Source of the DNA: Bdellovibrionales bacterium
GTDB taxonomy: Bacteria; Bdellovibrionota; Bdellovibrionia; Bdellovibrionales; UBA1609
DNA length: 64,000 bases
Assembly (NCBI GenBank): GCA_965199825.1
Contig: OZ241329.1
Location: 320,001 to 384,000 of the forward strand
Direction of reading: 5' to 3'
In this document: positions 5,844 to 59,401 of the stretch, one piece after another
How positions within the stretch are numbered: the first letter of the stretch is position 1
How the letters are laid out: each line of letters opens with the position of its first letter
Translations under genes and position numbers: made by a program
Notes under the pieces: model-generated
What the model was told of the DNA's origin: nothing
The model's input: only the letters and a program-made list of their open reading frames with translations
The model's database searches: none

Positions 5844-7329
5844 TATCGACAACATGAACGTTCTTCGTGCCATAAGGACGTCCAAATTCATCAGTCTCAT
5901 AAAGTCCGGGTTTTGTTTTCATCGGAAGAGTCCCGCCGAAATGTTGACTTCGACCTGAAGGGCCCGTCTTTTTGAAAAACGGCAATGGAATGCCGCCGAG
6001 TTTCCACGCATTGCGGATTAAAGTTCTAAACGCCTCGCCAGCAACTTTTTTTGATCGCCTAGACGGGCGCCCCGTTAAGCTTGCTAATTGCTGTGTTTGA
6101 TCAGCATTGATTTTTAACCCAAGACTGCCAGAATCTTCAGAGTGAAGATAAACCATTCCAATCATCAGTCGATCAAATATCGGCTTCAGAAGTTTAAAAC
6201 CCAGATCTGCAAGCACGCCAAATGTGTGACGCAAAGATTCTAAAACAATTTCATTAAACGGATACAGTTGAAAGTGAACAAGTTGGTGGGTTCGCTTAAG
6301 GGTAGCAAGTTGGATAAAAATCTGAGCTAGAGTATTTTGTGGTGCTACCGAAGCTCCGCGCGTGCGTTTAAACGTTATAAATGGAAAATAATATTTTTGC
6401 GAATCACGAATGGTAAATTCATGGCCCGACCATCCCATGGAACGTGCCACCAAAGCTGTTGTTCCTAAAACACCTGCGCCAATAAAAACTTTGTCATAGG
6501 TTTCAGTAAAGTTTTGATGAGTGTCTATGTTTTTAAATTGAACCTCAACGCCCTGTGATTTTTCAGAATATGATAGTGCGAGAGAGTGCGGCTTGTATGA
6601 GATTTTTTTGGCGGAAATAAGTTCTTTTATTACATTGGCCGCATTGAAAATAGCATTGTAAGAGCAGCCATGCATACACATGCCACAAGAGACGCAACCT
6701 TGCGACTCATAAGAATATCGTGTGCCGCAGGCGATTTTTGCCCTCCCTACATGAATCCCTTTAAGCTTTAAAGCAGGCGCCTTTTTATTTGATTGAGTTA
6801 AAACATTTAGCCCCTGGGGCCCTAATGGATATTGAGGTTTCCCGTGAATACGAACACTGTAAAGCTCGTCAACGGCGTCATTTTCGGTTGAGACATCAAC
6901 AAAATTCTCTAGGGTTCGAAATGCATTTTTTAATCGATCACTTTTAAATGGCCAGTGAACCATATCGCGATCGGCAACTGTGCCAACATTCGCGCCCCAT
7001 ACATTGCTTAAGCCGCCAAGTGCAAAAGAAGTTAAAACTTTCGATTTCGAATCAAGCTGAATTGCACCGCCTGGTACGGTCTTGTAAACAAACCTTGACC
7101 CAAAGCACAGCTTTTCTGGAAGTTCGGAACTTGCGCCATCGTGATCTGCACGCCTTTGACGGATTTTTGCTAAGGATTCTTCAGGCGTATGTCCGGGCCG
7201 AGTTAATGATTTTAAATTGTCCTCAAGTTCGTAACCCACGTCATAAACCGTGACGTCAGCGCCTTTTTCCACCAATGCGTACGCGGCCGAAGCGCCCGCA
7301 GGCCCACTTCCAATAACTGCGACTTTCAT
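5758..7329 (-). CDS. FAD-dependent GMC-family oxidoreductase
   Basis: VIGSGPAG FAD motif, LGGLSNVWGA, CVSCGMCMHGC, C-terminal HFGGT, NVHVVDTS and PT...MANS. Confidence 0.85.
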   Translation of the reverse strand: MKVAVIGSGPAGASAAYALVEKGADVTVYDVGYELEDNLKSLTRPGHTPEESLAKIRQRRADHDGASSELPEKLCFGSRFVYKTVPGGAIQLDSKSKVLTSFALGGLSNVWGANVGTVADRDMVHWPFKSDRLKNAFRTLENFVDVSTENDAVDELYSVRIHGKPQYPLGPQGLNVLTQSNKKAPALKLKGIHVGRAKIACGTRYSYESQGCVSCGMCMHGCSYNAIFNAANVIKELISAKKISYKPHSLALSYSEKSQGVEVQFKNIDTHQNFTETYDKVFIGAGVLGTTALVARSMGWSGHEFTIRDSQKYYFPFITFKRTRGASVAPQNTLAQIFIQLATLKRTHQLVHFQLYPFNEIVLESLRHTFGVLADLGFKLLKPIFDRLMIGMVYLHSEDSGSLGLKINADQTQQLASLTGRPSRRSKKVAGEAFRTLIRNAWKLGGIPLPFFKKTGPSGRSQHFGGTLPMKTKPGLYETDEFGRPYGTKNVHVVDTSVLTSVPGTPTTYIVMANSVRIVQESV

Positions 7330-8516
7330 AATTTAAACCCTTCATCCAAGTGAGTGTTGATCCATCCGGACCGTGGGAGGTCAACTTGTCGATCTAAATG
7401 CCTTTGCATACAAATATTTTGTCCTTTGCAAGGCGCGTAATCTGCAACATGGATACAAGGCGAACAATACACCTTTCTGTAATGTATTTGCTCAGGCTGA
7501 TCAAAAGGATATGGAGCAAGCCGTGTCGAAGGATCAGTTGGACCCCAGTACGACGTAATTTTTAAGCCTAAAAGACGTGCGATATGATTCAAACCCGAGT
7601 CAATCGTTAGAAGCTCTCCGACTTCGTGTAAAACAGCAACGGACTCTTTAAGGCTTAGCTTTCCAGCGACATTAATTATTTTTAAATTCGGAGCAAGTGA
7701 TAAAAACTCACGCTCGTAATTTTTAGCGCTTTCAACGTCAACCTTGCCTCCTAATAAGTAAATGGCCAATTCCTCACGGGGATATTTGTGTTCGATAATG
7801 TAAATCCATTCTTTCGCTGTAAACATCCGTTCAGGCCCAAGTTCGGAACAAAACGGTGATAGGCAAATACTTCGGCCTGTAGCTCGGAGCACGGAAAGGG
7901 GCAGTTCGGACTTGAACTGCATTCGAAACCTTCGTACACACTCGTAGCGTTGGTCGACATGCCCTCCTAATTCCTCCGCCATTTGGTCGTAGGCTTGATA
8001 TATAGGCGCAATTCCATTGTAAAAAAATGCGTGAGTCGTGAGGCCATATTGCCATCGGCTCCAGACCATAAAAAAACCAAAGCGGTTGCGGGCGCATGAC
8101 AGCAAAGAAAACACCCCCGAAAGCCTTGAGTGCAGTTCAAAATTTAAAATGCAGTCCGCGCGAAACGCAGCCAACAAACACTGCGTGGCAGTTACAACAA
8201 TCCGCCGAACCGAGGATGTTTCGAGCACGTAGATTCGATCAAAACAATTCATCACATCCGCAAAACCTTTAACCGCGGGCGTGCAAATCAAATTTAACTT
8301 TTTGTTTGGATACCTAGTTTTGATTGCGATTAACGCTGGATAGGCAGAAACGACACTTCCTCCGCCAAGGAGCTTAAAAACAAAAACGCTTTTTTGAATT
8401 TCTGAGCTGTGATCTCGCCGCAAAATTACGCCAAGAAATAAAGAAATTGGACGCAAAATTATGATCAGTAAATTCCCAAGATAGTAATCGGCCGATTTCA
8501 TTTGCTCTAAGTTCAT
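7326..8516 (-). CDS. Glycosyltransferase family 9 (heptosyltransferase-like)
   Basis: AGKLSLKE, IDSGLNHIA, WGPTDP and C-terminal CSPC...PC...C motifs. Confidence 0.85.
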   Translation of the reverse strand: MNLEQMKSADYYLGNLLIIILRPISLFLGVILRRDHSSEIQKSVFVFKLLGGGSVVSAYPALIAIKTRYPNKKLNLICTPAVKGFADVMNCFDRIYVLETSSVRRIVVTATQCLLAAFRADCILNFELHSRLSGVFSLLSCARNRFGFFMVWSRWQYGLTTHAFFYNGIAPIYQAYDQMAEELGGHVDQRYECVRRFRMQFKSELPLSVLRATGRSICLSPFCSELGPERMFTAKEWIYIIEHKYPREELAIYLLGGKVDVESAKNYEREFLSLAPNLKIINVAGKLSLKESVAVLHEVGELLTIDSGLNHIARLLGLKITSYWGPTDPSTRLAPYPFDQPEQIHYRKVYCSPCIHVADYAPCKGQNICMQRHLDRQVDLPRSGWINTHLDEGFKL

Positions 8517-15744: not shown

Positions 15745-15823
15745 AAGCAGAAGTTTTGCGTGCTGCTCACAAAATTGCAATTCTTAAATGATTCTTATTC
15801 AGTCGCGAGGTAGGCTCTCAACC

Positions 15824-16816
15824 ATGAATATCTTGGTGACAGGCGGAGCGGGTTATATTGGTGCAATCACCTGTCGTCAGCTGATCGAGCAAGGCCACGA
15901 TGTTGCGGTTTTTGATCAATCGCACCTCCGGCCAAATTTAAATTTTATAAAACAATTTGTGTGTGGAGATGTGAGAGACACCGATCTGTTAAGACAAACG
16001 GTTCAAAAATATAAGATCAACACAGTTATCCATTTTGCCGCAAAAATTAATGTGGCTGAATCGATGCTAAAGCCTCTCGAGTATTATTCAAATAATGTGG
16101 GAGGTCTCTTAAGTGTGCTTCAGATTTGTACTGAGTTTAAAATTACCAAATTCATTTTTTCTTCAACCGCTACGGTTTATAAGGGTCAAAGTCTTGATCC
16201 GCTTAAAGAAACAGACGCGCTCGCACCCATCAGTCCTTATGGTTGGTCAAAACAAATGGGCGAAACAATTCTGCTCGACTTCAAGTCGTCGTGGCCACAA
16301 TTTCAACCATTAATTTTGCGCTATTTTAATGTGGCGGGTGCAACTTTAGATAATCAATTGGGCCAACCCGATCAGATGGCGCCTCATCTGATCGCGACCG
16401 CATGCCGTTCGGTTGCTCAGGGCTCTTTGAAGTTAAAAGTTTTTGGTACCGATTATCCAACGCCCGATGGAACCTGCATTCGTGACTACATTCATGTAGA
16501 AGATTTGGCATCGGCACATGTTGATGCTGTAAAGGCGGTAAACTTAAATCATCCCGGAGGAATTTTTAATTGTGGCTACGGTAAAGGGGCAAGTGTCACC
16601 GAGGTGATCGAAGCGGTGCAAAAAGTTGCGGCAAAAAATTTATCGCTACAATATTGTGATCGTCGTGAGGGTGATCCCGCGATTTTGATCGCCGACAACA
16701 ACAAGTTGCGCCAAGAGTTCGGTTGGTTTCCTCAGCATGACTCTTTAGAGGTCATCTGCAAAACCGCTCTTGCATGGGAACAAAAACGCATTCTAGAATT
16801 GGGCTTGAGAGTATGA
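15824..16816 (+). CDS. galE: UDP-glucose 4-epimerase
   Basis: MNILVTGGAGYIG, FSSTATVY, PYGWSK, LRYFNVAGA, DYPTPDGTCIRDYIHV. Confidence 0.92.
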   Translation: MNILVTGGAGYIGAITCRQLIEQGHDVAVFDQSHLRPNLNFIKQFVCGDVRDTDLLRQTVQKYKINTVIHFAAKINVAESMLKPLEYYSNNVGGLLSVLQICTEFKITKFIFSSTATVYKGQSLDPLKETDALAPISPYGWSKQMGETILLDFKSSWPQFQPLILRYFNVAGATLDNQLGQPDQMAPHLIATACRSVAQGSLKLKVFGTDYPTPDGTCIRDYIHVEDLASAHVDAVKAVNLNHPGGIFNCGYGKGASVTEVIEAVQKVAAKNLSLQYCDRREGDPAILIADNNKLRQEFGWFPQHDSLEVICKTALAWEQKRILELGLRV

Positions 16817-18672
16817 CTGATCTTCGCCAAATTTTAATAAACAACACAACACCTCTCATCGCAGACGGCGGCATGTCCACATCGCTTTATGATCGTGGAT
16901 TTTATATCAATCGCAGTTTTGAAGAGCTCTGTCTCACAAGCCCCCAAACAGTCATTGAGGTCACATCCGAATTTAAAAAAGCGGGCGCAAATCTTTTGCT
17001 CACCAATACATTTAGTGCAACCCTTCCAAAGCTCACCCGTTACGGATTACAAGATCAGCATCAAAAAATAATCCAAGCCGCATGTGAAATTGCAAAACAA
17101 GTGGGCGCCAAGGAATGCTTCGTTTTGGCAAACATGGGCCCATTAGGGATCGTGCTCGAACCTCTCGGCCCGACGAGTTTTGAAGAAGCTGTTGATCACT
17201 TCAAAATAACTGCCGAAATCTTTGAGCACTCTCAAATAAATGGATTTAATTTAGAAGGTTTTCATGATTTAACGGAGCTCGAAGCGGCTGTTCAAGCGGT
17301 GCGTTCGATTTCACAAAAGCCTTTGTTTGTTCACGTAGCTATAAAAGAAAATTTGCGCACCTCTTATGGTCATTCACTGCAAGAGTTTGCCGAACGATTT
17401 AAAAAATACGAAATCGATGTCTATGGAATTTCAGGCGACATTGGACCGAGTGGAATGTTGAGCGCACTCGAAGTTCTAAGACCACTTGTTGAAAAACCAA
17501 TTTCTCTCAAGCCCAATGCGGGCCTTCCCCAATATGTGAATGATCAATACATTTACCTTTGTAATCCCGACTACATCGCAAAATATGCCAAGCGATTTAT
17601 TCAAGCTGGGGCACGCATTGTCGGCGGCGGCTCGGGGGTGTCTGAGTCTCATATCAAAGCGATCAGCAATACCCTTCGCATGCTCGAGCCGCAGTCTCGG
17701 ACGGAAGTAAAAAAAATTGAGATTAACCAAAAACCAACACATAAAACGTTAACCACCAAAATTGAAAATCGATCTAAGCTCGGATCTTATTTTAAAGAGA
17801 AAAAACCGATTTATTCAGTCGAGATCAATCCTCCCAATGGAGTGCGGCTCGACAAATTTTCTGAACATTGTAAGGCACTGGTCCGTGGCGGCGTTGAGTT
17901 CGTCAATATCCCCGATGGGGCAAGAGCAATGGCTCGGATGAGTTCCCTTCAACTGGCAATTTTTGTTAAAAATAATTTTGGTTTAGAACCAATTCCCCAT
18001 TTTACCTGCCGCGATCGCAATTTGATTGGTTTACAGTCTGATCTGTTGGGTTGTTTTGTAAATGGTGTACGAAATGTTTTACTTGTGACCGGCGATCCAC
18101 CAAAATTGGGCAACTGTCCCGATGCCACAGCGGTCTATGATGTCGATGCGATCGGACTCACCCACATCGTTTCACGAATGAATAAGGGACTTGATCTTGG
18201 TGGATCCGATTTTGGTGAGCCCACCCAATTTATGGCAGGGGTCGCATTAAATCCAACAGCTCACAACCAAGAATTAGAAATTAAAAGATTTAAATATAAA
18301 GTCGAAGCGGGTGCAGACTACGCGATCACCCAACCGATTTACGATCTTGAAGCTTATAAAAGATTTCTTGATCGCCTTGGCCCAATTTCAATTCCGATTG
18401 TTATGGGAATTTGGCCATTGGTCAGTTTGCGCAATGCTGAGTTTTTAAAAAACGAAGTCCCCGGAGTGGAAGTGCCCAACTGGGTGATTACAGAAATGGA
18501 AAAAGCAGGAGAATCAAAAGAAGAAGCTCTAAAGCGAGGAATTGAAATTTCGATTGAAACCATCAACGCTGCAAAAGATTTGGTCGATGGCTTTCAAGTC
18601 AGTGCGCCTTTTAATAAAGTCGAAATCGCACTTCAAGTGATTCACTCGGTGTCCAATGCCATTTCGACTTAA
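16813..18672 (+). CDS. YitJ-type fusion of a homocysteine S-methyltransferase-like domain and methylenetetrahydrofolate reductase; HMT Zn ligands missing
   Basis: N-domain ADGGM, TNTF, PNAGLP. C-domain VEINPP, HFTCRDRN, TGDPP, KVEAGADYAITQP. ATG at 16813 overlaps the galE stop. Confidence 0.88.
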   Translation: MTDLRQILINNTTPLIADGGMSTSLYDRGFYINRSFEELCLTSPQTVIEVTSEFKKAGANLLLTNTFSATLPKLTRYGLQDQHQKIIQAACEIAKQVGAKECFVLANMGPLGIVLEPLGPTSFEEAVDHFKITAEIFEHSQINGFNLEGFHDLTELEAAVQAVRSISQKPLFVHVAIKENLRTSYGHSLQEFAERFKKYEIDVYGISGDIGPSGMLSALEVLRPLVEKPISLKPNAGLPQYVNDQYIYLCNPDYIAKYAKRFIQAGARIVGGGSGVSESHIKAISNTLRMLEPQSRTEVKKIEINQKPTHKTLTTKIENRSKLGSYFKEKKPIYSVEINPPNGVRLDKFSEHCKALVRGGVEFVNIPDGARAMARMSSLQLAIFVKNNFGLEPIPHFTCRDRNLIGLQSDLLGCFVNGVRNVLLVTGDPPKLGNCPDATAVYDVDAIGLTHIVSRMNKGLDLGGSDFGEPTQFMAGVALNPTAHNQELEIKRFKYKVEAGADYAITQPIYDLEAYKRFLDRLGPISIPIVMGIWPLVSLRNAEFLKNEVPGVEVPNWVITEMEKAGESKEEALKRGIEISIETINAAKDLVDGFQVSAPFNKVEIALQVIHSVSNAIST

Positions 18673-20128
18673 GGCACAACATGGCCAACTCAATTATGAC
18701 TTGACCGTAAGTCTCGCTGGACCAACCTTGCTTGAGCATTTGCAAAATGCCGAAGTCCCAATCAAATCAAGTTGTTTAGGTAAGGGATTATGCCGGCAGT
18801 GTCGGGTGCAAATTTTAAAAGGAATTGCACCTGTAACCGCAAACGATAAAAAAGCCTTTAGCGACTCTCAACTCAAAAATGGTTGGCGTTTGAGTTGCGG
18901 GATCAGGCCCCGCTCGGCAATGGAATTTCAGTTTCCCCAAATATTTATCTATCAAGAGGACATTAAAAAATCTCGCGAGCCTCATAAGCCTTGGTGGTTT
19001 TGCTGTGATCTTGGTACAACTGGTGTGGAGCTTGCGGGAGTCGACCATCAAGGCATTTGGTGTACCTTAAAGGGATTAAATTCTCAGGTCAGCATGGGGG
19101 CTGATGTGATGACTCGCCTCGAATACACTCAGCGAAATGGAGTCGAGCCATTAACCAGACGGATTCGTTCGCAGCTCACTCATTACACAAAAAAAATATC
19201 TCAGCAGACGTCGATAGAGGCTCAAAAAAAGATGTTTGTTGCGGGCAATTCGGCAGTGACCGCATTTCTAGCTCAGCAACCTGTGGATCAACTTGCGGTT
19301 TCTCCCTACAAACCCAATTCGCTCGAATCTCAAACGTTTTCATTCAATGATTTTGCCATCGAAACATTACCCCTGCTCTATAGTTTTGTGGGTGGGGATC
19401 TCTTTGCCGGTTTATTTTTGATTTGGCAGCGCCCCGAAATATTGGCCGAGCCATGGATTTTGGTAGATGTTGGTACCAACTCCGAAATTTTATTTTGGGA
19501 CAAACAAAAACTATTTGTATCTAGTACTCCTGCAGGTCCTGCATTCGAGGGATCAAGTATTAGCATCGGTATGCGAGCCGAAAACGGCGCAGTGGTGAAT
19601 CCGATTTTTACCACAGACCATTGGCAATTTGATATTTTAGGAAATGATTTAGCTCGTGGACTTTGTGGTACGGGACTTATCCAAATGATTTCGGAGGCGG
19701 TCGACAATGGGATCGTCTCACACGACGGCGAGGTTTTAAAACCGCAACAGCTTTCACTGAATTCAGAACTCTTTTTATCCCAAGATGATATTCGCGAATT
19801 TCAACTCGCCAAATCGGCAATTCAAACCGGCATTGAGCTGGTACAAAGTCAAAGTATCACAAAAGCTAAAAAACTTTTTTTGGCTGGTTCATTTGGTGAG
19901 CACTTGCCTCTAAAGGCGTGCCGTCATCTTCAACTTTTACCTGAGCTTGAATGCGAAACTTTAGGAAACGCGAGCCTTGATGGCACCGTGCTGTGGAGTC
20001 AAAGTTCCTCACAACTCAAAACTCAATATCAAACTTGGCTAGCCCAAGTATTAACTCCCCTTGATCTTGCCTTGTCCGATCAGTTTCAAGAACGATTTGT
20101 AAACAATATGAATTTAGGAGCAACATGA
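18656..20128 (+). CDS. 2Fe-2S ferredoxin / ASKHA ATPase (DUF4445, RACo/RamA-type reductive activator of corrinoid proteins)
   Basis: CLGKGLCRQC...RLSC 2Fe-2S motif; DLGTT, GADVMTR, FVGGD, DVGTNSE, AGPAFEG, GLCGTG, QDDIREFQLAK, LAGSFG. Confidence 0.88.
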   Translation: MPFRLKAQHGQLNYDLTVSLAGPTLLEHLQNAEVPIKSSCLGKGLCRQCRVQILKGIAPVTANDKKAFSDSQLKNGWRLSCGIRPRSAMEFQFPQIFIYQEDIKKSREPHKPWWFCCDLGTTGVELAGVDHQGIWCTLKGLNSQVSMGADVMTRLEYTQRNGVEPLTRRIRSQLTHYTKKISQQTSIEAQKKMFVAGNSAVTAFLAQQPVDQLAVSPYKPNSLESQTFSFNDFAIETLPLLYSFVGGDLFAGLFLIWQRPEILAEPWILVDVGTNSEILFWDKQKLFVSSTPAGPAFEGSSISIGMRAENGAVVNPIFTTDHWQFDILGNDLARGLCGTGLIQMISEAVDNGIVSHDGEVLKPQQLSLNSELFLSQDDIREFQLAKSAIQTGIELVQSQSITKAKKLFLAGSFGEHLPLKACRHLQLLPELECETLGNASLDGTVLWSQSSSQLKTQYQTWLAQVLTPLDLALSDQFQERFVNNMNLGAT

Positions 20129-22632
20129 ATCCGCGCTACACTTTATTTCGTGAAGCTCTCGCGAATCGACTTCTTCTGCTCGATGGTTCGATGGGCGCCC
20201 TACTGCAAAAAAGAAATTTGCCCGCAGGCTATGCCCCAGATCTGTGGAATCTTGAAAAACCCGAAGTGATCGAACAGGTCCATCGAGAATATATTGAGGC
20301 CGGTGCCGATATCCTTATCACAAACACCTTTGGAGCCTCAAAACTTCGCCTGCAAGAGTACGATGCCTACGATAAATTAACCGCAATCAATACCGCAGCG
20401 GTTCGTCTCGCACGACGTGCGGCCGGAAATAAATTTGTGGCGGGCGACATCGGCCCTTGTGGTGACACGATATTTCCCACGGGATCTCGTCCATTTGGCG
20501 AAGTGGTCGAGATTTTTAAGGAACAAGCCACTGCTCTGATCGATGCCGGTGTGGACTGCATCATCATTGAGACCATGTTTGATTCTCTCGATTACAAGGC
20601 GGCCTTGTCTGCGGTTCGAAGTGTCAGTCAGCACATTCCGATTATTGCGCTGATGACATTCAATACCGACACTGTGTCTGATACAGGCATCACTCCAGAA
20701 TCTTGTGTGGCGATTGCTGAGGGATTCCATGCCGACGTGGTCGGTGCCAACTGCTCGGTGGGTCCCGATGCGATGATCGAAGTGATAAAAAAAATGAAGG
20801 CCATCAGCAATTTGCCTTTATGTGCCCAACCCAATGCCGGACTTCCCGTCTTAAAAAATGGCGAAACAGTTTTTCCGCTCGATGCCGAAAACATGGCGGG
20901 ATTTGTTGAGAATTTTTTTAAAGCTGGTGCGCGAATTTTGGGAGGCTGCTGCGGAACAACTCCTGAGTTTATAAAAAAACTAAGACACATCGTCGATTCA
21001 CACCAAAATCTTTTTCAATATTCCAAAACTGAACATCGTCAAAGGGTCTTACTCTCGTCAAAAATGCGAACAGTCTGCATTGGATCCGATTATCCGTTTG
21101 TCATGATTGGCGAAAAAATCAATCCCACGGGTCGAAAAAAAGTTGCCGAAAATATTCGTAAGGGAAATATCGAAGCTCTTTTAGCCGATGCTCATGCCCA
21201 ATTTCTTGCAGGCGCTCATTGTCTCGATGTTAACGTGGGAGTGCCGCTCATCGATGAGCCCGAGATGATGTCCACAGTGATTTGTGCGCTCCAAAATTCG
21301 ATCGAAACCCCTCTCGTGATCGACTCCAGTTTTTCTGAAGCATTGTTAAAAGGCGGCCAGGTGTATTACGGCAGACCCCTCTTAAATAGCGTCAATGCCG
21401 AAGACGAAAAGATCGAGGAAGTTTTGCCCATCGCAAAAGCGGTGGGTGGAGCTGTGCTTGCGCTTGTCACCGAAACCGAAGTGCCCGAAAAAGCCGAAGA
21501 CCGCCTAAAATACGCACAAAAAATACTAGATCGATTTTTGGCTGCGGGCTTTCATCGCAACGATATTGTGTTCGATGTTTTAAGCCTGACCGTTTCGGCG
21601 ATGAGGCAAGGCAGTATTGAAACTTTTAAAACAATCGAGCTCATCAAAAACGAACTCGGGTGCGCCACCACCTTTGGTCTTAGCAACTCTTCGTTTGGAT
21701 TGCCCAATCGTCGTTTTGTTCACCAAGCCTACCTGATGATGTGCATTCAACGTGGGCTTACATCCGCGATCATGAATGTGCTCGAAAAAGATATCGTCAC
21801 ACGTGTGGCTGCGAGTGACCTCTTCACCCAAAAACAAAATGCGGTATCTGAATATCTGCAATCCTGGTCCTCTCCCATTGCCGAAGGAGAAAGTTCAAAC
21901 ACACAACCGACTTTACAATCCACAGAAGAAGACCCTACCCTCAAACTCAATCTTGATCCCCTCCAAAAAGAAATCTTTTGGGATATTGCCGAAGGCAAAA
22001 AAGATAAGATTGAAAATGATGTGAACGAGTTTATTAAGACCAGGAGCTCTCAATCTTTCGAATTATTTTTGAATGTGATGACTCCAGGAATTCGCTATCT
22101 TGGCGAACTTTTTGGTAAACGCAAAAGGTTTATTCCGCATCTCGTCGCAGCCGCCGAAGCAATGAAGATTGGAGTCAAAATTCTTGAGCCCCACTTCAAT
22201 CGCAATGAAAATGAAGTTCAAAAAGGCACGGTGATCTTTGCTACTGTTAAAGGGGACATTCACGACATCGGAAAAAACATCTGTGTTTTAATGCTCAAAA
22301 ATTTTGGCTACAATGTGATCGATTTAGGACGAAACGTTGCAATGGACACCATCTTTAATGCGGCTCGCGAAAACAAAGCCGAGATCATCGCACTCTCTGC
22401 ACTGATGACCACCACAATGATCCAAATGAAACTCTTGATCGAAGAAAATCGAAAGCAAGGGTACGGCTACAAGGTGATGATCGGTGGAGCTCCTGTCACT
22501 TCAGAATTTGCAAAAGAGATCGGGGCAAATGGACATTGCGAAGATGTGGGCGGAATTGTCAACCAGACCGAATTGCTGTTTAGCGCCCTTGGTTTTCAGA
22601 GCGTTTCATCTGGCAAACACCCCACCATGTGA
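20125..22632 (+). CDS. metH: Cobalamin-dependent methionine synthase lacking the C-terminal reactivation domain
   Basis: Hcy domain (GANC, GGCCGT), pterin domain (IGEKINPTG, GLSNSSFG), cap and B12 domain (GDIHDIGKN, SALMTTT, IGGAP). Ends at 835 aa. Confidence 0.9.
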   Translation: MNPRYTLFREALANRLLLLDGSMGALLQKRNLPAGYAPDLWNLEKPEVIEQVHREYIEAGADILITNTFGASKLRLQEYDAYDKLTAINTAAVRLARRAAGNKFVAGDIGPCGDTIFPTGSRPFGEVVEIFKEQATALIDAGVDCIIIETMFDSLDYKAALSAVRSVSQHIPIIALMTFNTDTVSDTGITPESCVAIAEGFHADVVGANCSVGPDAMIEVIKKMKAISNLPLCAQPNAGLPVLKNGETVFPLDAENMAGFVENFFKAGARILGGCCGTTPEFIKKLRHIVDSHQNLFQYSKTEHRQRVLLSSKMRTVCIGSDYPFVMIGEKINPTGRKKVAENIRKGNIEALLADAHAQFLAGAHCLDVNVGVPLIDEPEMMSTVICALQNSIETPLVIDSSFSEALLKGGQVYYGRPLLNSVNAEDEKIEEVLPIAKAVGGAVLALVTETEVPEKAEDRLKYAQKILDRFLAAGFHRNDIVFDVLSLTVSAMRQGSIETFKTIELIKNELGCATTFGLSNSSFGLPNRRFVHQAYLMMCIQRGLTSAIMNVLEKDIVTRVAASDLFTQKQNAVSEYLQSWSSPIAEGESSNTQPTLQSTEEDPTLKLNLDPLQKEIFWDIAEGKKDKIENDVNEFIKTRSSQSFELFLNVMTPGIRYLGELFGKRKRFIPHLVAAAEAMKIGVKILEPHFNRNENEVQKGTVIFATVKGDIHDIGKNICVLMLKNFGYNVIDLGRNVAMDTIFNAARENKAEIIALSALMTTTMIQMKLLIEENRKQGYGYKVMIGGAPVTSEFAKEIGANGHCEDVGGIVNQTELLFSALGFQSVSSGKHPTM

Positions 22633-23326
22633 GGCCCGGAATAAATCGAACAAAACTCAAAATTTTTGCATCGAATACTAACATCGCGGTAATCAACTTG
22701 GTGAGCAGTGGCCCCCCACCCCAACCGGCGATCGTTTTTTGTTTGGCATTTTTGGATTCTTTTAATTTTTCCAATATGCGAACAAGCAGCGCGATCACAA
22801 AAATTTGGCCAGTTTTTTTGGTCTCCAAACCACAGTTGATAATCAAATTTTTAATTTCTTCAGGCGAATATCTTCGAAAATGCTCGAGTCCGGTATCATG
22901 AGCGGTAAATAATTTTTGCCACTCAGGAACTGTAATGATCACCGATCCTTTTGGTTTTAGAGAATGAGTCACAAGATTTTTTAAAAAACTTCGGTCATCT
23001 TCAATGTGTTCCAAAATATCACATAAAAAAATCAGATCGAATTTTTGATTAGGCTGTTGGGTGACAAATTGAACATTTGCACTTCGGAGTGATTTTAATT
23101 GTTTGATATCATTTTGTTCATAGTTTTTGTCCCAACAGGTGATTTTCGAAATCGAGGTCGAATTTATTTTTAACTGATCGGCAAGCCATGCATCCCCCGA
23201 ACCCACGTCGAGGGCTTCAAGATCTTGCCCCTCAATTTGACTCACCAAGGATTGCAAAAATTTGGCGCGAGCCAACTCCCAAGGATGCCTCTTTGTTGGA
23301 TGAATTCGAAACTCTTTTAAATCCAA
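22580..23326 (-). CDS. Class I SAM-dependent methyltransferase
   Basis: LDVGSGDA motif I, FDLIFLCDILEH, LKPKG, ITVP, HD...HFRRY; TTG start with GAGGTG RBS. Confidence 0.85.
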   Translation of the reverse strand: MDLKEFRIHPTKRHPWELARAKFLQSLVSQIEGQDLEALDVGSGDAWLADQLKINSTSISKITCWDKNYEQNDIKQLKSLRSANVQFVTQQPNQKFDLIFLCDILEHIEDDRSFLKNLVTHSLKPKGSVIITVPEWQKLFTAHDTGLEHFRRYSPEEIKNLIINCGLETKKTGQIFVIALLVRILEKLKESKNAKQKTIAGWGGGPLLTKLITAMLVFDAKILSFVRFIPGLTWWGVCQMKRSENQGR

Positions 23327-23403: not shown

Positions 23404-24138
23404 ATGGCAACTCTTCTTGTTATTCCATGCTACAACGAAGCTCAACGCATCCGCATTGAAGCTATCCAAGAGCTATTGCAAAATAAAGACTTACAAATTT
23501 TATTTGTTGATGATGGTTCAAAAGATTCTACTCTTTCAATTCTTAATGATTTTTGCCGACGCTTAGAACGCATTGAGATTTTGACCCTCAAACAAAATAG
23601 TGGCAAAGCCGAGGCAGTCCGTCAGGGGTTGCTCAAAGCTTTAGAAAGTTCGACGGAGCTCATTGGGTATTGTGATGCTGACTTTGCAACACCCCCAAAA
23701 GAGGTTTTAAGAATTATCGACGAGTGCCTTTTTCACCACGAACGTCAGTGTGTGATTGGATCAAGAATACGACTCCTCGGTTTAGATGTGAATCGCAGTT
23801 TTTTTCGCCATATCTTAAGTCGGATCTTTGCAACTCTTGGCTCTTGGACACTTCAAATGACGGTCTACGATACTCAATGTGGTGCAAAGTTTTTTAGACC
23901 AAGTCCCCTCTTAAAATTTGTTTGTACTGAGAAATTTATTTCTCGTTGGGCTTTTGATGTTGAACTGCTCGGACGTTTAAAAAAGGGTTCGGCTCAATTT
24001 CAAGGTCTTCAGCCTAAGGATTTTTTAGAAATTCCTCTTAAACAGTGGAGCGAAGTATCGGGATCCAAAATGACCTTGAGAGCCGCATTGAGAATGGGCT
24101 TTGATCTTTTTAAAATTGCGAGACGACTTCACCGTTGA
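23404..24138 (+). CDS. GT2 polyprenol-phosphate glycosyltransferase (DPG-synthase-like)
   Basis: VIPCYNE, VDDGSKD, NSGKAEAVRQG, DADFATP, DTQCGAK, WAFDVE. Start revised to the ATG at 23404. Confidence 0.88.
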   Translation: MATLLVIPCYNEAQRIRIEAIQELLQNKDLQILFVDDGSKDSTLSILNDFCRRLERIEILTLKQNSGKAEAVRQGLLKALESSTELIGYCDADFATPPKEVLRIIDECLFHHERQCVIGSRIRLLGLDVNRSFFRHILSRIFATLGSWTLQMTVYDTQCGAKFFRPSPLLKFVCTEKFISRWAFDVELLGRLKKGSAQFQGLQPKDFLEIPLKQWSEVSGSKMTLRAALRMGFDLFKIARRLHR

Positions 24139-25187
24139 AGAAGTTTTTGGCTTCCCTTCTCCTTTTTTTACTGGCAATCGGTATTGATCATCGAAGGGAC
24201 TGGAGCTGGATCTACACCCATTGGCTTTTTGATTATCATTTTGGATTTATCAAGCGCGGCTTGGTCGGCGCAGGTCTTCATTTAATTTCATCCTCACTGC
24301 CGTTACTCGAAGTGCAAATTTTGTCTATCCTAATGGCTGCAGCAGTGACGATTTTCTTTATTAAATTTTTTTGGGATTTGCGCGCTTGTTGGAATCATTC
24401 AATCTTAATTTTTGCGGTCTTCGTCTTTTTCTCACCACTTTCAGTCAGAAACTATTTTTACGACTTGGGTCGATTTGATCAACTGAGTATGGTTTTGATC
24501 TTACTTCAGTGGTTCAATATTCCTCTGCTAGTTACTGCTGCTTTGGCCACAGCCCTGGTGGCGGTGCATGAGAACTTCTTTTTTATTTTTCTTCCTGCCC
24601 TCTCATTTATTTTGTACCAAAAGCACGGACTCAAAAAAACGATGGCTGTCATCTTCAGTGTCACGATGGCCACATTTTTTGTTTTTATTTTCGGCCACCC
24701 CAGTGTTGGGCGCTCGACTTTATTTGAATATCTCCAAAGCAAGGCCACAATCGCTCTCGACGACAATCTGGATCTTTTTTATGTCAATGCTCAAGAACAG
24801 TTCAAAGCAAATATGGCGCATTTTGAAATTCAAAAACATTTTTGGTACGGCTATTTATTGTATGCGAGCTTTTTGATTCCACTGGTCCTCACCCTAAAAT
24901 CAATCACAACCGATAAATTTGAAAAACTAATTTTTGCCGGATTGGTCAGCGGTTATCTCTTTATTTTTATTTTCACCTGCGACTGGTGTCGCCATCTCAC
25001 CAATCTCTTTCTGATCTTGGCCTTTCTCATTTTGTATTTGTACCGACAAAAAAAATTGGTGACCGACTTTGAATTTTTCAAATCCCGATGGCGCTACTTT
25101 TATTTCGTTTTATTTTTATTGCCCGCGGCGGGAGTCGAGATCCCAAGGCTGGTGAAGTTATTTCCCGTATTCGCGAAGTACCTCTGA
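24135..25187 (+). CDS. Polytopic membrane protein (possible GT-C glycosyltransferase)
   Basis: About 10 hydrophobic segments; YHFGFIKRGLVG, RFD, VHE, DWCR; coupled to the GT2 gene. Confidence 0.55.
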   Translation: MKKFLASLLLFLLAIGIDHRRDWSWIYTHWLFDYHFGFIKRGLVGAGLHLISSSLPLLEVQILSILMAAAVTIFFIKFFWDLRACWNHSILIFAVFVFFSPLSVRNYFYDLGRFDQLSMVLILLQWFNIPLLVTAALATALVAVHENFFFIFLPALSFILYQKHGLKKTMAVIFSVTMATFFVFIFGHPSVGRSTLFEYLQSKATIALDDNLDLFYVNAQEQFKANMAHFEIQKHFWYGYLLYASFLIPLVLTLKSITTDKFEKLIFAGLVSGYLFIFIFTCDWCRHLTNLFLILAFLILYLYRQKKLVTDFEFFKSRWRYFYFVLFLLPAAGVEIPRLVKLFPVFAKYL

Positions 25188-25886
25188 AGAGGTAGAATCA
25201 ATTTTTAGCCGATGCTGATCAATCCAAATAGCTCGATCACACATCCGCTCCACATCTCCAGCCGAATGCGAAACCAAAACGATTGTCACTCCGGTTTTTT
25301 TAAAAGCGAGCATCCGGTCCATGCACTTGGCTTGAAACGCAGAATCCCCTACCGCCAAAACCTCATCGACCAATAGGATCTGAGGATCAAGATTCGCCAC
25401 CACAGAAAATCCTAGACGCGCCAGCATGCCAGAAGAAAATGACCGAACCGGCTGGTCAATAAATTCTTCCAACTCAGAAAACTCAATAATCGCATCCACT
25501 TTTTTGGCAACTTGCTTTCGCGAAAGTCCGAGCAACACACCATTGAGTCTTATATTTTCAAGCCCGCTCAAGTCGGGATGAAATCCTCCACCCAATTCTA
25601 AGAGTGGTGAAACTCGTCGGTTCACCACCACATCGCCAAGGCTTGGCTTGAGCACTCCGGCAATCAATCCTAATGTTGTACTTTTGCCAGCACCATTTCG
25701 CCCGACAAAGGCCACCGACTCGCCCTTTTGAATTTCAAAGGAAATATTTTCGAGCGCGGTAAACCGGGTTTGCCGCATCTCCTTTATTGCCCGAGGCAAA
25801 TTAAAAATCAGGCGTTTAAGTCCTGAGGTCATATGATGATAAAGCGGATAATGCTTGGTCACATTTCGAAATGAAATATCGGTCAT
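25158..25886 (-). CDS. wzt: Polysaccharide ABC exporter ATP-binding subunit (Wzt/TagH-like)
   Basis: GRNGAGKST, FSSGMLARLGFS, LLVDEVLAVGD, VSH. Start at ATG 25886. Confidence 0.92.
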   Translation of the reverse strand: MTDISFRNVTKHYPLYHHMTSGLKRLIFNLPRAIKEMRQTRFTALENISFEIQKGESVAFVGRNGAGKSTTLGLIAGVLKPSLGDVVVNRRVSPLLELGGGFHPDLSGLENIRLNGVLLGLSRKQVAKKVDAIIEFSELEEFIDQPVRSFSSGMLARLGFSVVANLDPQILLVDEVLAVGDSAFQAKCMDRMLAFKKTGVTIVLVSHSAGDVERMCDRAIWIDQHRLKIDSTSSEVLREYGK

Positions 25887-26641
25887 CAAAGTACCTCCGC
25901 AAAACGCCACTGAAGCCTTTGATAAATAACTTGAGAAATCAAAACACAAACGAGCACCCACACGCTCGTCCAAAATACAAAACTCCAATTCAGACCTGAA
26001 CCCATCAGGATATTTCGCCAGTTGATAATCAACATGGCAAAGGGCTGATAAACTAAATAAGACCTATATTGATCAGGAATCATATCGGCGCTGTAAATTA
26101 CGGGGGTAAAATAAAAAATTGCGGTCATCGAAAGTTGCAAAAGCCGCTCGAGATCGCGCAAAAAAAGATTCATGGTTCCCAGAAACAACATAAAGGCATA
26201 GGTCAAACCAAACTGCAGAATGCACAGTAGAGGGATTTGATAAAGCCAAGAAAGATGAAGCGGCATCTTAAATAGAACAAGGAAAAACACAATCACCGGC
26301 ACCGAGACCAAAAAATGAATCGCATCTTGCAGCACCTGCACAAATGCAATCAGATAACGGGGGAAATTGGTTTTTTTAATCAGCTGTGCATTGCCATAAA
26401 AAATCATCGGCCCGATTGCCAGTGAATTGCTCACCCACTGCCACGGAAATAATCCACAAATCAAAAACACCGGAAAATTTGGAGTTTGAACTTTTAAAAT
26501 TTGACCAAAAACAACGAAGTACAAAAACGCATGGGCAAGTGGGCTTGCCACCGACCACACATAACCGAGTGCCATGTGCTTGTATCTGACACGCAACTCT
26601 TTCATCAAAAGAGCCATCACGATGTCATAAAACCGTATCAT
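25886..26641 (-). CDS. wzm: Polysaccharide ABC exporter permease (Wzm)
   Basis: KELRVRYK...LGYVWS, RDL, FYFTPVIY; about six TMs; coupled to wzt. Confidence 0.9.
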   Translation of the reverse strand: MIRFYDIVMALLMKELRVRYKHMALGYVWSVASPLAHAFLYFVVFGQILKVQTPNFPVFLICGLFPWQWVSNSLAIGPMIFYGNAQLIKKTNFPRYLIAFVQVLQDAIHFLVSVPVIVFFLVLFKMPLHLSWLYQIPLLCILQFGLTYAFMLFLGTMNLFLRDLERLLQLSMTAIFYFTPVIYSADMIPDQYRSYLVYQPFAMLIINWRNILMGSGLNWSFVFWTSVWVLVCVLISQVIYQRLQWRFAEVL

Positions 26642-57530: not shown

Positions 57531-57606
57531 TGGCAGGGCAGGAGGGATTCGAACCCACAACCTACGGATTTGGAGTCCGCCGCTCTACCGTTAGAGCTAC
57601 TACCCT
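57531..57606 (-). tRNA. tRNA-Trp (CCA)
   Basis: Cloverleaf AGGGTAG...GCGGA-CTCCAAA-TCCGT...GGTTCGAATCC...GCCA. Confidence 0.95.
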
Positions 57607-57615
57607 ACAAATAGC

Positions 57616-57645
57616 TTTGGGGACCCTCTTTTTTGAGTCCCCAAA
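57616..57645 (-). other. Hairpin between tuf and tRNA-Trp (processing site or weak terminator)
   Basis: TTTGGGGAC / GTCCCCAAA inverted repeat; no strong U-tract. Confidence 0.45.
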
Positions 57646-57680
57646 ACTTTGATTTCAACAATGAAACGGGATTAAGAACA

Positions 57681-58871
57681 TCAGTCCTTAATTTCAACAA
57701 CCACTCCCGCACCAACGGTACGACCACCTTCGCGGATGGCGAATCGCAATTCTTTTTCCATTGCGATGGGTCCGATGAGCTCAACTTCCATTTCAACACG
57801 ATCTCCAGGCATAACCATTTCTGTTCCTGCTTTGAGAGTTACGACGCCTGTGACGTCTGTTGTGCGAAAATAAAATTGGGGGCGATAACCATTGAAAAAT
57901 GGAGTGTGACGTCCACCCTCTTCTTTTGTAAGAACGTAAGCTTCGCAACGAAATTTTTTGTGTGGAGTGATTGAACCGGGCATCGACAAAACTTGTCCAC
58001 GCTCAACTTCTTCTTTTTTGGTACCGCGAAGTAAACAACCTGCGTTGTCTCCAGCACGACCTTCATCAAGAAGTTTGCGGAACATTTCGATTCCGGTCAC
58101 GGTAGTTTTTTGAGTGGGTCGAAGTCCAACGATCTCAACTTCTTGGCCAATTTTGATAATTCCACGCTCAATACGACCAGTCACAACAGTTCCACGACCA
58201 GAGATCGAGAACACATCCTCAACAGGCATCAAAAATGGCTTATCGACCGCACGAGTAGGTTCAGGGATGTAAGCATCTACTGCATCCATCAATCTGAAAA
58301 TCGAAGGCTCACCCACATCGCTGGAATCGCCATTCAATGCTTTGAGTGCTGATCCTTTAACTATTGGGATGGTGTCGCCAGGGAATTCGTATTTTGATAA
58401 GAGTTCACGAACTTCGAGCTCAACAAGCTCAAGCAATTCGGCATCATCAACCATATCGACTTTATTTAAAAACACAACAACAGCTGGAACACCAACCTGA
58501 CGAGCAAGCAAAATATGTTCGCGAGTTTGTGGCATTGGTCCGTCAGCCGCGGAAACAACAAGAATTGCACCATCCATTTGGGCTGCACCCGTGATCATGT
58601 TTTTTACATAATCGGCGTGTCCAGGACAATCAACGTGAGCATAATGGCGGTTTTTGGTTTCGTACTCCACGTGTGCAGTGGAAATTGTGATTCCGCGCTC
58701 ACGCTCTTCAGGAGCTTTATCGATCATATCGTAAGCCATCGCTTTTGCACCACCCGCTTTGGCTAAAACCGTAGTGATAGCAGCTGTCAGTGTTGTTTTG
58801 CCATGATCCACGTGACCAATGGTCCCGATGTTCACATGAGGTTTATTACGCTCGAACTTTTCTTTGGACAT
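57681..58871 (-). CDS. tuf: Elongation factor Tu
   Basis: [37 protein letters not shown]. Confidence 0.98.
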
Positions 58872-58965
58872 TTTGCTTCACTCCTTATCGATGCCTGAAT
58901 TTTTCGCGCGAAAAATTCGTGATTATAAAAACATTTTTAAAACTCGTACACAGTCAGCCCAAAAG

Positions 58966-59040
58966 TGGAGCCCATGGTGAGACTCGAACTCACGACCTCA
59001 CCCTTACCAAGGGTGTGCTCTACCCCTGAGCCACATGGGC
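58966..59040 (-). tRNA. tRNA-Thr (GGT)
   Basis: Anticodon arm CACCC-TTGGTAA-GGGTG, GTTCGAG T-loop, CCA end. Confidence 0.95.
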
Positions 59041-59045
59041 CTAAA

Positions 59046-59122
59046 TGGAGCGGGAGACGGGTCTCGAACCCGCAACCCTCAGCTTGGAAGGCTGATACTC
59101 TAGCCAATTGAGCTACTCCCGC
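59046..59122 (-). tRNA. tRNA-Gly (TCC)
   Basis: GCGGGAG acceptor stem, TCAGC-CTTCCAA-GCTGA, CCA end. Confidence 0.95.
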
Positions 59123-59162
59123 CACAAACCTAAAACTATGGCCTCCATCGCCCCTAAATACA

Positions 59163-59248
59163 TGGTGGAGAGAGTAGGATTCGAACCTACGTAGGCGTGA
59201 GCCAACGGATTTACAGTCCGTCCCCTTTAGCCACTCGGGCATCTCTCC
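59163..59248 (-). tRNA. tRNA-Tyr (GTA)
   Basis: ACGGA-CTGTAAA-TCCGT, long variable arm, ACCA end. Confidence 0.95.
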
Positions 59249-59325
59249 ATCGGGCTACAATTTCCTTTTTTTAGGCTCCTTCAGACCGCCCGTTGACGGA
59301 AGATCTCAAGGAGAATAAAAAACTT

Positions 59326-59401
59326 TGGAGCTGGTTATGGGACTCGAACCCGCAACCTGCTGATTACAAATCAGCTGCTCTACCAATTGAGCTAAACCAG
59401 C
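59326..59401 (-). tRNA. tRNA-Thr (TGT)
   Basis: CTGA-TTTGTAA-TCAG, GGTTCGAGTCC, CCA end. Confidence 0.95.

Follow-up and report, generated by a model that had tools for sequence, protein, structure and literature searches.

A stretch of 64,000 nucleotides from a Bdellovibrionales bacterium (assembly GCA_965199825.1, contig OZ241329.1, positions 320,001 to 384,000), which is called the window here, contains a yitJ/samT-type gene in which a domain with the fold of a homocysteine methyltransferase (HMT) is fused to a methylenetetrahydrofolate reductase (MTHFR) within a single open reading frame (ORF). The frame opens with an ATG at 16813, sharing the letters ATGA with the stop codon of the upstream gene, and closes with a TAA at 18670-18672. 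The whole protein scored 625.3 bits against the family profile NF006396 (cut-off 453; profile positions 9-604 of 611), and a domain search assigned residues 14-286 to PF02574 and residues 324-585 to PF02219. Residues are numbered as in the protein P0001, which begins at codon 2 (16816); from residue 206 onward this equals the numbering of Thermotoga maritima MetH. The gene and its parts are as follows:

16813..18672, plus strand: yitJ/samT-type gene of 619 codons, N-terminal HMT-fold domain without zinc ligands followed by MTHFR
16855..17673, plus strand: disarmed HMT barrel, residues 14-286, full length (PF02574 positions 1-282 of 283, 163.6 bits)
16879..16929, plus strand: beta1 rim loop, residues 22-38, conserved, candidate interface with the MTHFR barrel
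17137..17175, plus strand: beta3 rim loop, residues 108-120, conserved
17431..17439, plus strand: S206-G207-D208 in place of N-C-S, first zinc cysteine changed to glycine
17512..17601, plus strand: beta7 hairpin and helix 7, residues 233-262, conserved, candidate interface
17629..17634, plus strand: G272-S273 instead of C-C, with loss of the second and third zinc cysteines
17785..18666, plus strand: MTHFR domain (PF02219), with E336, H395, D427, and Q506 retained

Three cysteines bind the zinc ion which activates homocysteine, as described for MetH of Thermus thermophilus (bioRxiv 10.1101/2024.08.29.610163) and for MetH and BHMT (PMC539065). A preliminary description of this DNA, made from its letters alone, had claimed that all three are lost from the HMT domain of the fusion protein, that the domain is nonetheless full length and in frame with the motifs ADGG, TNTF, and PNAGLP, that the adjacent MetH keeps its cysteines, and that the MTHFR half looks intact. 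These observations were confirmed, the last one at the level of motifs. Positions 17422-17448 read YGISGDIGP in frame and positions 17620-17640 read VGGGSGV. In a gapless alignment of the motifs to T. maritima MetH (PDB 1Q7M), GINCSLGP stands against GISGDIGP and GGCCG against GGGSG, so that cysteine 207 has become glycine (GGC, 17434-17436), cysteine 272 glycine (GGC, 17629-17631), and cysteine 273 serine (TCG, 17632-17634). Thus neither the GxNC and GGCCG ligands of the (Cys)3-Zn homocysteine methyltransferases nor the three zinc cysteines of a bifunctional YitJ/SamT are present. From the homocysteine-binding motifs, which we take to be DGxxG after beta1 and ET after beta4, the protein retains D17, G18, and E147 and has S21 and G148 at the other positions. 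A replacement zinc triad of cysteine and histidine shared by the relatives can be ruled out here: C206, H272, and C273 occur together in 21 of 120 aligned homologues, and the protein itself has none of the three. As the zinc cysteines are lost, the known chemistry of these enzymes would leave no zinc-thiolate activation and no methylation of homocysteine by this domain, and it is very probably devoid of canonical HMT activity.

Contigs of two sequencing runs matched positions 17148-17852 without a differing letter or gap; both runs belong to one study, and the first of them is possibly the source of this DNA itself. With these identical bases, and with glycine 207 in all 120 aligned rows, an assembly error or a private mutation is ruled out. 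The alignment was made of the best 120 of 6669 matches, the query together with 119 homologues of 55-72% identity, and none of its rows has the triad. Cysteine 272 occurs in none, its place being taken by histidine in 98, and position 273 is serine in 78 and cysteine in 35; cysteine 206 is found in 42. The usual state in these homologues is GGH[S/C]G rather than GGGSG, the glycine 272 of this protein being the rarer state, found in 4 of the 120 rows. Close homologues which bear names are labelled Bdellovibrionales and similar, from which the phylum of the window is deduced. When 124 rows of the clade were counted, residue 207 was glycine in all, residue 272 was histidine in 101 and never cysteine, and residue 273 was serine in 79 and cysteine in 37. 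All three cysteines are retained, on the other hand, in 126 of 136 distant full-length family representatives (50% clusters; 150 listed, 14 removed on length) and in 69 metagenome loci out of the 73 that remained when seven of 80 had been set aside as too short, the other four being of the type without cysteines. This type of MTHFR was present in 30 of the 109 genomes of the window's own family, and 60 yielded no match to the query used. Two of the 30 copies are cut by a contig end and the other 28 are whole frames of 610-660 codons, each with a complete domain; none of these has C207 or C272, and five have C273. No deletion of the domain was found among the 28 uncut copies; standalone derivatives may exist outside the 109 genomes. 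In family f1, 19 genomes matched a distant standalone MTHFR and 30 the YitJ-type fusion, but no genome matched both, which suggests that one has replaced the other.

A tree of the MTHFR domain only (FastTree, 339 unique rows) placed 125 rows without the cysteines in one clade (SH-like support 97), sister to 18 rows which keep them. The loss is therefore clade-wide. Outside this clade 13 rows in nine small lineages lack one to three of the cysteines, with ten changes in total, and single rows among them may reflect alignment errors. A separate clade made up of the loci L102, L104, L136, and L138 (support 97), whose record titles name Chlorobiota, Ignavibacteriae, Kapaibacterium, and Hyphomicrobiales, reads N-S-T-V-G-P, PSAG, and GGCVG; the YitJ ORF lies near the match, at about 6001-7800 in these 13.8-kb loci. 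Two cysteines and N234 are gone there, but G21, H50, E147, T148, and N206 are retained, and judged by these residues this clade would be a better candidate for a dead domain that senses an amino acid than the clade of the window. In a third independent loss, L040 and P0128 read NCLKGP with GGGSG and NGGNGP with GGCSG, respectively, each with a different single cysteine left.

What else has changed in the HMT domain is unevenly spread. The clade has lost 15 HMT sites which both cysteine-keeping groups conserve, against two such sites in MTHFR. Of 46 sites common to cysteine-keeping YitJ proteins and 37 MetH-like domains, the clade keeps 28 at a frequency of at least 0.8, mostly glycines and prolines plus TNTF and PNAG, and 14 have fallen to 0.35 or less, including G21, H50, E147, T148, N206, C207, C272, C273, T275, and P277. 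The contacts to the amino and carboxyl groups of homocysteine are presumably made by G21, position 106, and E147, and we take G23, D105, E146, T147, N234, and Y247 to be the residues with roles in the zinc and homocysteine site of T. maritima MetH. In the clade E147 is present in 39 of 124 rows, position 106 has no majority residue, and G21 and T148 are found in 1% and 0%. According to PMC539065, the amino group of homocysteine is bound by carboxylates and its carboxyl group by backbone amides after beta1. At matched MTHFR identity of 60-75% (1500 sampled pairs of the clade, 138 of the sister, and 516 others), the identity of the pocket sites, which were partly picked on the same data, was 0.42 in the clade against 0.94 in the sister and 0.92 in other cysteine-keeping proteins; the rest of the HMT domain stood at 0.50 in the clade, above the pocket. 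The rim of the barrel behaves differently. Segment 22-38 had an identity of 0.87 in the clade and 0.86 in the sister, segment 108-120 of 0.80, 0.75, and, in the other cysteine-keeping proteins, 0.77, and segment 233-262 of 0.81 in the clade and 0.80 in the sister. Residues D252, Y253, K256, and R260 are invariant across the 120 rows, Y247 is retained in 123 of 124 rows of the clade, and the rim sequence of this protein resembles that of YitJ, not that of MetH. Some residues are newly fixed in the clade, namely H150 (119/124), G207 (124/124), glutamate or aspartate at 208 (120/124), and V275 (122/124); H150, G207, and V275 occur in about 1% or less of other YitJ proteins.

The domain is under purifying selection. 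Synonymous sites are saturated among 22 loci (mean synonymous difference, pS, 0.80, with 96% of the 231 pairs reaching at least 0.7), and in the 12 least saturated pairs the ratio of nonsynonymous to synonymous divergence (dN/dS) was 0.18-0.29. The proportion of nonsynonymous differences (pN) was 0.30 for the dead domain, compared with 0.22 for MTHFR residues 330-470. Across 403 bases of that domain, a strain with 98% identity differs by six synonymous changes and one isoleucine to valine exchange. With the domain whole in all 28 uncut family copies, the claim that it is maintained rather than decaying held, and pseudogene decay is ruled out for this protein and its clade with the exception of L016. 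The ratio of HMT to MTHFR distance, taken at an MTHFR p-distance of 0.15-0.35, came to 1.50-1.63 for the clade and to 1.13-1.22 for its sister, with 1.38-1.59 among the other cysteine-keeping proteins. Judged from such ratios, constraint appears slightly relaxed compared with the sister yet inside the range of the family. On the stems the HMT/MTHFR ratio was 4.0 for the clade and 1.8 for the sister. The exception L016 (G006:C1:363425-365191, minus strand), in a genome of 1.6 Mb, has a full-length HMT domain reading GVGGWSG and intact MTHFR motifs, and appears to show a path of decay.

Two AlphaFold models of the protein, both with two intact barrels, were compared. The predicted template modelling score (pTM) rose from 0.59 with 87 close rows to 0.81 with 150 diverse rows, and confidence rose jointly in HMT residues 21-40 and 231-260 and in MTHFR residues 361-380, 391-410, and 421-450. 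The predicted local distance difference test (pLDDT) went from 82-83 to 96 in the beta1 rim loop and from 68/51/89 to 86/79/96 in the beta7 hairpin and helix 7. The MTHFR segments which gained confidence include the loop bearing D427, corresponding to the catalytic aspartate loop of MTHFR described in PMC9900621. The conserved rim is thus predicted to form a fixed interface with the MTHFR barrel, as read from pTM and pLDDT only. The HMT model has the (beta/alpha)8 fold of the methyltransferases. It matched MmuM (5DML) across 269 residues with Z 33.8 and a root-mean-square deviation (rmsd) of 2.2, and BHMT (1UMY) across 274 residues with Z 34.7 and an rmsd of 2.3; the MTHFR model matched the T. 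thermophilus enzyme (3APT; Z 29.4, rmsd 3.0 over 280 residues). The arrangement of the two barrels did not match that of the homocysteine and folate modules of MetH (Hcy:Fol; TM score 0.43-0.45, rmsd 15-16). No structure covering both barrels at low rmsd was among the fold-search matches listed, the 50 rows listed by a wide fold search contained no full-length MetE double barrel, and no solved YitJ structure was among the PDB matches found. Mean-field coevolution analysis of 411 rows (about 206 effective) ranked every inter-domain pair at 75 or lower and showed no clear cluster.

The MTHFR half has E336, H395, D427, and Q506 aligned with the motif residues of the E. coli and T. thermophilus enzymes, and the catalytic glutamate, aspartate, and glutamine together with the PH motif are shared by this protein and all 30 of the 30 copies in the family. 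The catalytic residues of E. coli MTHFR are given as E28, D120, and Q183 in PMC9900621. From the retention of these motifs we infer that this half is active. The flanking genes are:

15788..16816, plus strand: GalE-like NAD-dependent epimerase (PF01370, 177 bits), whose stop overlaps the yitJ start
18656..20128, plus strand: RACo/RamA-AcsV-like corrinoid reductive activase (2Fe-2S and ASKHA; PF00111, PF17651, PF14574)
20125..22632, plus strand: cobalamin-dependent methionine synthase MetH (HMT-pterin-cap-B12), with GANC and GGCCG intact

The yitJ-type gene, the activase gene, and metH overlap successively in one run. The activase scored 198 bits against NF040756, under the cut-off of 800 for that profile. 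The MetH of the window has 835 residues and keeps GANCS and GGCCG; a reactivation domain was not detected in it, and the RACo-type activase likely reactivates it. MetH adjoins the cysteine-less YitJ in many relatives, and at 20 loci examined GxNC and GGCCG were kept in all 16 neighbouring MetH ORFs found, four loci having no such ORF in range. In the genome, whose completeness is rated at 100%, MTHFR was matched once and the HMT domain twice (in the yitJ-type gene and in MetH); MetK and SahH are present, and neither MetE nor LuxS was found. A SAM-I riboswitch, which is reported on B. subtilis yitJ by a title cited in PMC5743806, was found neither in the genome nor in the window, where the only Rfam matches are tRNAs. 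Beside the cysteine-less YitJ stands either a short MetH of 835-850 amino acids with a RACo activase (window 18656-22632, L030, L061, L063, L141) or a long MetH of 1230-1260 amino acids (L062, L064, L067, L070, L096), which means that one type of MetH has been swapped for the other in the course of the clade's history; the short ones are 70-75% identical to that of the window and the long type about 30%. The RACo-like gene of L061 (7879-9556) and the metH of L066 (2215-5987) each appear as two overlapping ORFs, through a frameshift or an assembly error. In the window the methionine genes lie inside a polysaccharide or glycosylation locus (7326-29164), in which glycosyltransferase-like, MBOAT-like, ABC transporter, and sugar-transferase-like ORFs were recognised by eye. 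An S-adenosylmethionine (SAM)-dependent methyltransferase is located at 22580-23326 (minus strand) and five tRNA genes at 57534-59401 (minus strand); the GC skew, near zero before, turns at about 24000-26000 and lies at about -0.10 to -0.16 up to 60000.

The reading which we moderately favour is that of a working MTHFR with a catalytically dead HMT barrel retained as its structural partner. MTHFR would make methyl-tetrahydrofolate, and MetH, reactivated by the RACo protein, would methylate homocysteine to methionine. The conserved rim loops of the dead barrel would pack against the MTHFR barrel and support it, as the deeper model predicts, and the fused MTHFR may now depend on the dead barrel for folding, for stability, or for the ordering of loops near the flavin adenine dinucleotide (FAD)/folate site. 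The interface would have been inherited from cysteine-keeping ancestors and still be selected; the retained role looks inherited because the rim loops are equally conserved in the cysteine-keeping sister. Redundancy with MetH alone fails to explain the loss of the cysteines, since the sister also adjoins MetH, and several of its rows share the order of yitJ, activase, and metH. As for the interpretation in the preliminary description, a pseudoenzyme domain repurposed as a scaffold or as a sensor of methionine, SAM, or homocysteine, the pseudoenzyme part stands on the clade-wide loss and the constraint on the domain. Repurposing found little backing, as the rim is conserved to the same degree in the sister; the scaffold fits best, and sensing of methionine or homocysteine in the old pocket is disfavoured because the residues of the pocket motifs vary freely across the clade. 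A remodelled site, for SAM included, is possible.

Several points weigh against a structural partner. The shallower model, with its pTM of 0.59, shows no fixed arrangement of the barrels, and the gain in the deeper one describes the family and not the dead clade, because the cysteines are present in most rows that were added. Standalone related MTHFRs with frames of about 290-380 codons occur in other families of the phylum, so this fold needs no HMT partner in general. The HMT/MTHFR branch ratio is 1.38 in the clade against 1.10 in the sister, a mild relaxation (1.24 in other cysteine-keeping proteins), and in L016 the HMT domain is far more diverged (p-distance 0.70 against 0.47 in MTHFR, tip ratio 2.5, PNAG lost), which means that the constraint is not absolute. 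A purely passive role leaves the fixation of H150, of E/D208, and of H272 (81%) unexplained. Given how the pocket sites were chosen, their identity of 0.42 is no independent test, and in a two-domain FastTree of 40 rows including the long-branched L016 the clade was supported with 0.69 only.

The newly fixed residues bear on another explanation, by which the dead barrel would bind SAM, or S-adenosylhomocysteine or methionine, in a remodelled pocket and tune MTHFR via the predicted interface, much like the unrelated regulatory domain of eukaryotic MTHFR, possibly using H150, E/D208, H272, and the space opened by the exchange of cysteine 207 for glycine. The four newly fixed positions, the burst of HMT changes on the stem of the clade, the lack of a SAM-I riboswitch in genome and window, unlike in B. 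subtilis yitJ, and the retained D17-G18, TNTF, and PNAG, with E147 kept in this protein, would all suit such a sensor. Pocket positions 21, 50, 106, 147, 148, and 206 drift, however, H272 is absent from 23 of 124 rows including this protein, the conserved rim is inherited rather than new, and the stem ratio depends on a short MTHFR stem of 0.072; such a sensor is conceivable but rather unlikely. The wider idea that the fused HMT became a sensor of SAM or the methionine cycle, and that the repeated losses of cysteines in YitJ show regulation and not catalysis to retain the domain, is equally doubtful. If true, the N-terminal sensor would be the bacterial counterpart of the feedback on eukaryotic MTHFR, achieved with an unrelated domain.

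The overlap of yitJ, activase, and metH and the presence of MetH beside the gene in many relatives would fit a barrel mouth that binds the cobalamin module of MetH, or RACo, and holds MTHFR near MetH so that methyl-tetrahydrofolate is passed on. The cobalamin domain of MetH is described to dock on the mouth of the homocysteine barrel (bioRxiv 10.1101/2024.08.29.610163), and the nearly invariant Y247 points the same way. But the same rim stands beside two types of MetH, which argues against a specific co-adapted interface, and its sequence is YitJ-like rather than MetH-like, so that docking is quite improbable. Still less credit is due to a slow vestige with no role left, kept since clean deletion of half a fused gene is rare and misfolding costly. 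Such a vestige would account for the mild relaxation, the decayed L016 copy, and the nine further small lineages with one to three cysteines lost; it is at odds with surface loops at 0.80-0.87 identity in a domain which otherwise stands at 0.50, and with 28 of 28 whole family copies despite saturated synonymous sites. A domain which is still an enzyme, with histidine, glutamate, and cysteine rebuilding a metal site or serving another methyl transfer, is the least credible. Metal could potentially be bound by H150, E/D208, and H272, C206 and C273 occur in 42 and 35 of the 120 rows, and MetE is described with histidine, cysteine, and glutamate ligands (PMC539065). Yet the set of C206, H272, and C273 is complete in only 21 of the 120 rows, S206, G272, and S273 of this protein are none of those ligands, and the substrate-side motifs drift in the clade.

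Among known proteins the closest are the YitJ/SamT fusions (NF006396, PRK08645), with which this one shares domain order, length, MTHFR motifs, and the rim; it differs in having lost the cysteine triad, which most representatives keep, and the neighbouring pocket motifs. YitJ/SamT is labelled bifunctional in PMC9618320, and in PMC6302742 and PMC5743806 yeast homologues, not an assay of SamT, are the ground on which B. subtilis SamT is credited with HMT activity. On its sequence, the protein of the window is to be regarded as YitJ by descent and is not to be filed as bifunctional. The (Cys)3-Zn methyltransferases (homocysteine domain of MetH 1Q7M/3BOF, BHMT, MmuM; PF02574) share the barrel fold, DG, TNTF, GP, and PNAG, whereas their zinc cysteines are absent here and the two-barrel arrangement is unlike that of MetH. 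A parallel is found in MetE's N-terminal barrel, which according to PMC539065 is a barrel of the zinc/homocysteine type that has lost the binding of metal and of homocysteine and is kept beside an active one; MetE arose by duplication and the partner is a homocysteine barrel, while here the partner is a flavoenzyme. With eukaryotic MTHFR the protein has in common a catalytic barrel with an extra noncatalytic domain, but the SAM-regulatory domain is C-terminal there. The protein studied here ends with the MTHFR barrel and has no such C-terminal domain, and matches to 8QA6, 8QA5, 6FCX, and 8UY1/2 span residues 317-621 only, leaving 1-300 unmatched. Prokaryotic MTHFR is not regulated by SAM in the eukaryotic manner, as stated in a 2026 review (PMC13001107). 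On the reading of a structural partner, the dead barrel would work more like the disabled N-terminal barrel of MetE than like the regulatory part of eukaryotic MTHFR.

No description of a YitJ without the cysteines was found in the open literature searched, and the protein likely represents an apparently new, clade-wide pseudoenzyme variant within the known YitJ family. YitJ is widespread, and the papers cited above rely on homology for what its HMT half does. A clade with over 120 natural proteins in which the barrel is kept and the catalytic centre dropped makes the two possible jobs of the domain separable, and it offers ready comparisons of the cysteine-less protein with its cysteine-keeping sister and of the full-length with a truncated form. 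If a response to a ligand proved true, this would be an allosteric bacterial MTHFR, a property which the recent review treats as a eukaryotic trait. The labels "bifunctional homocysteine S-methyltransferase/MTHFR" and "homocysteine S-methyltransferase" on proteins of this clade likely overstate their chemistry, and this matters for metabolic reconstructions because the cells would need B12 and MetH for methionine.

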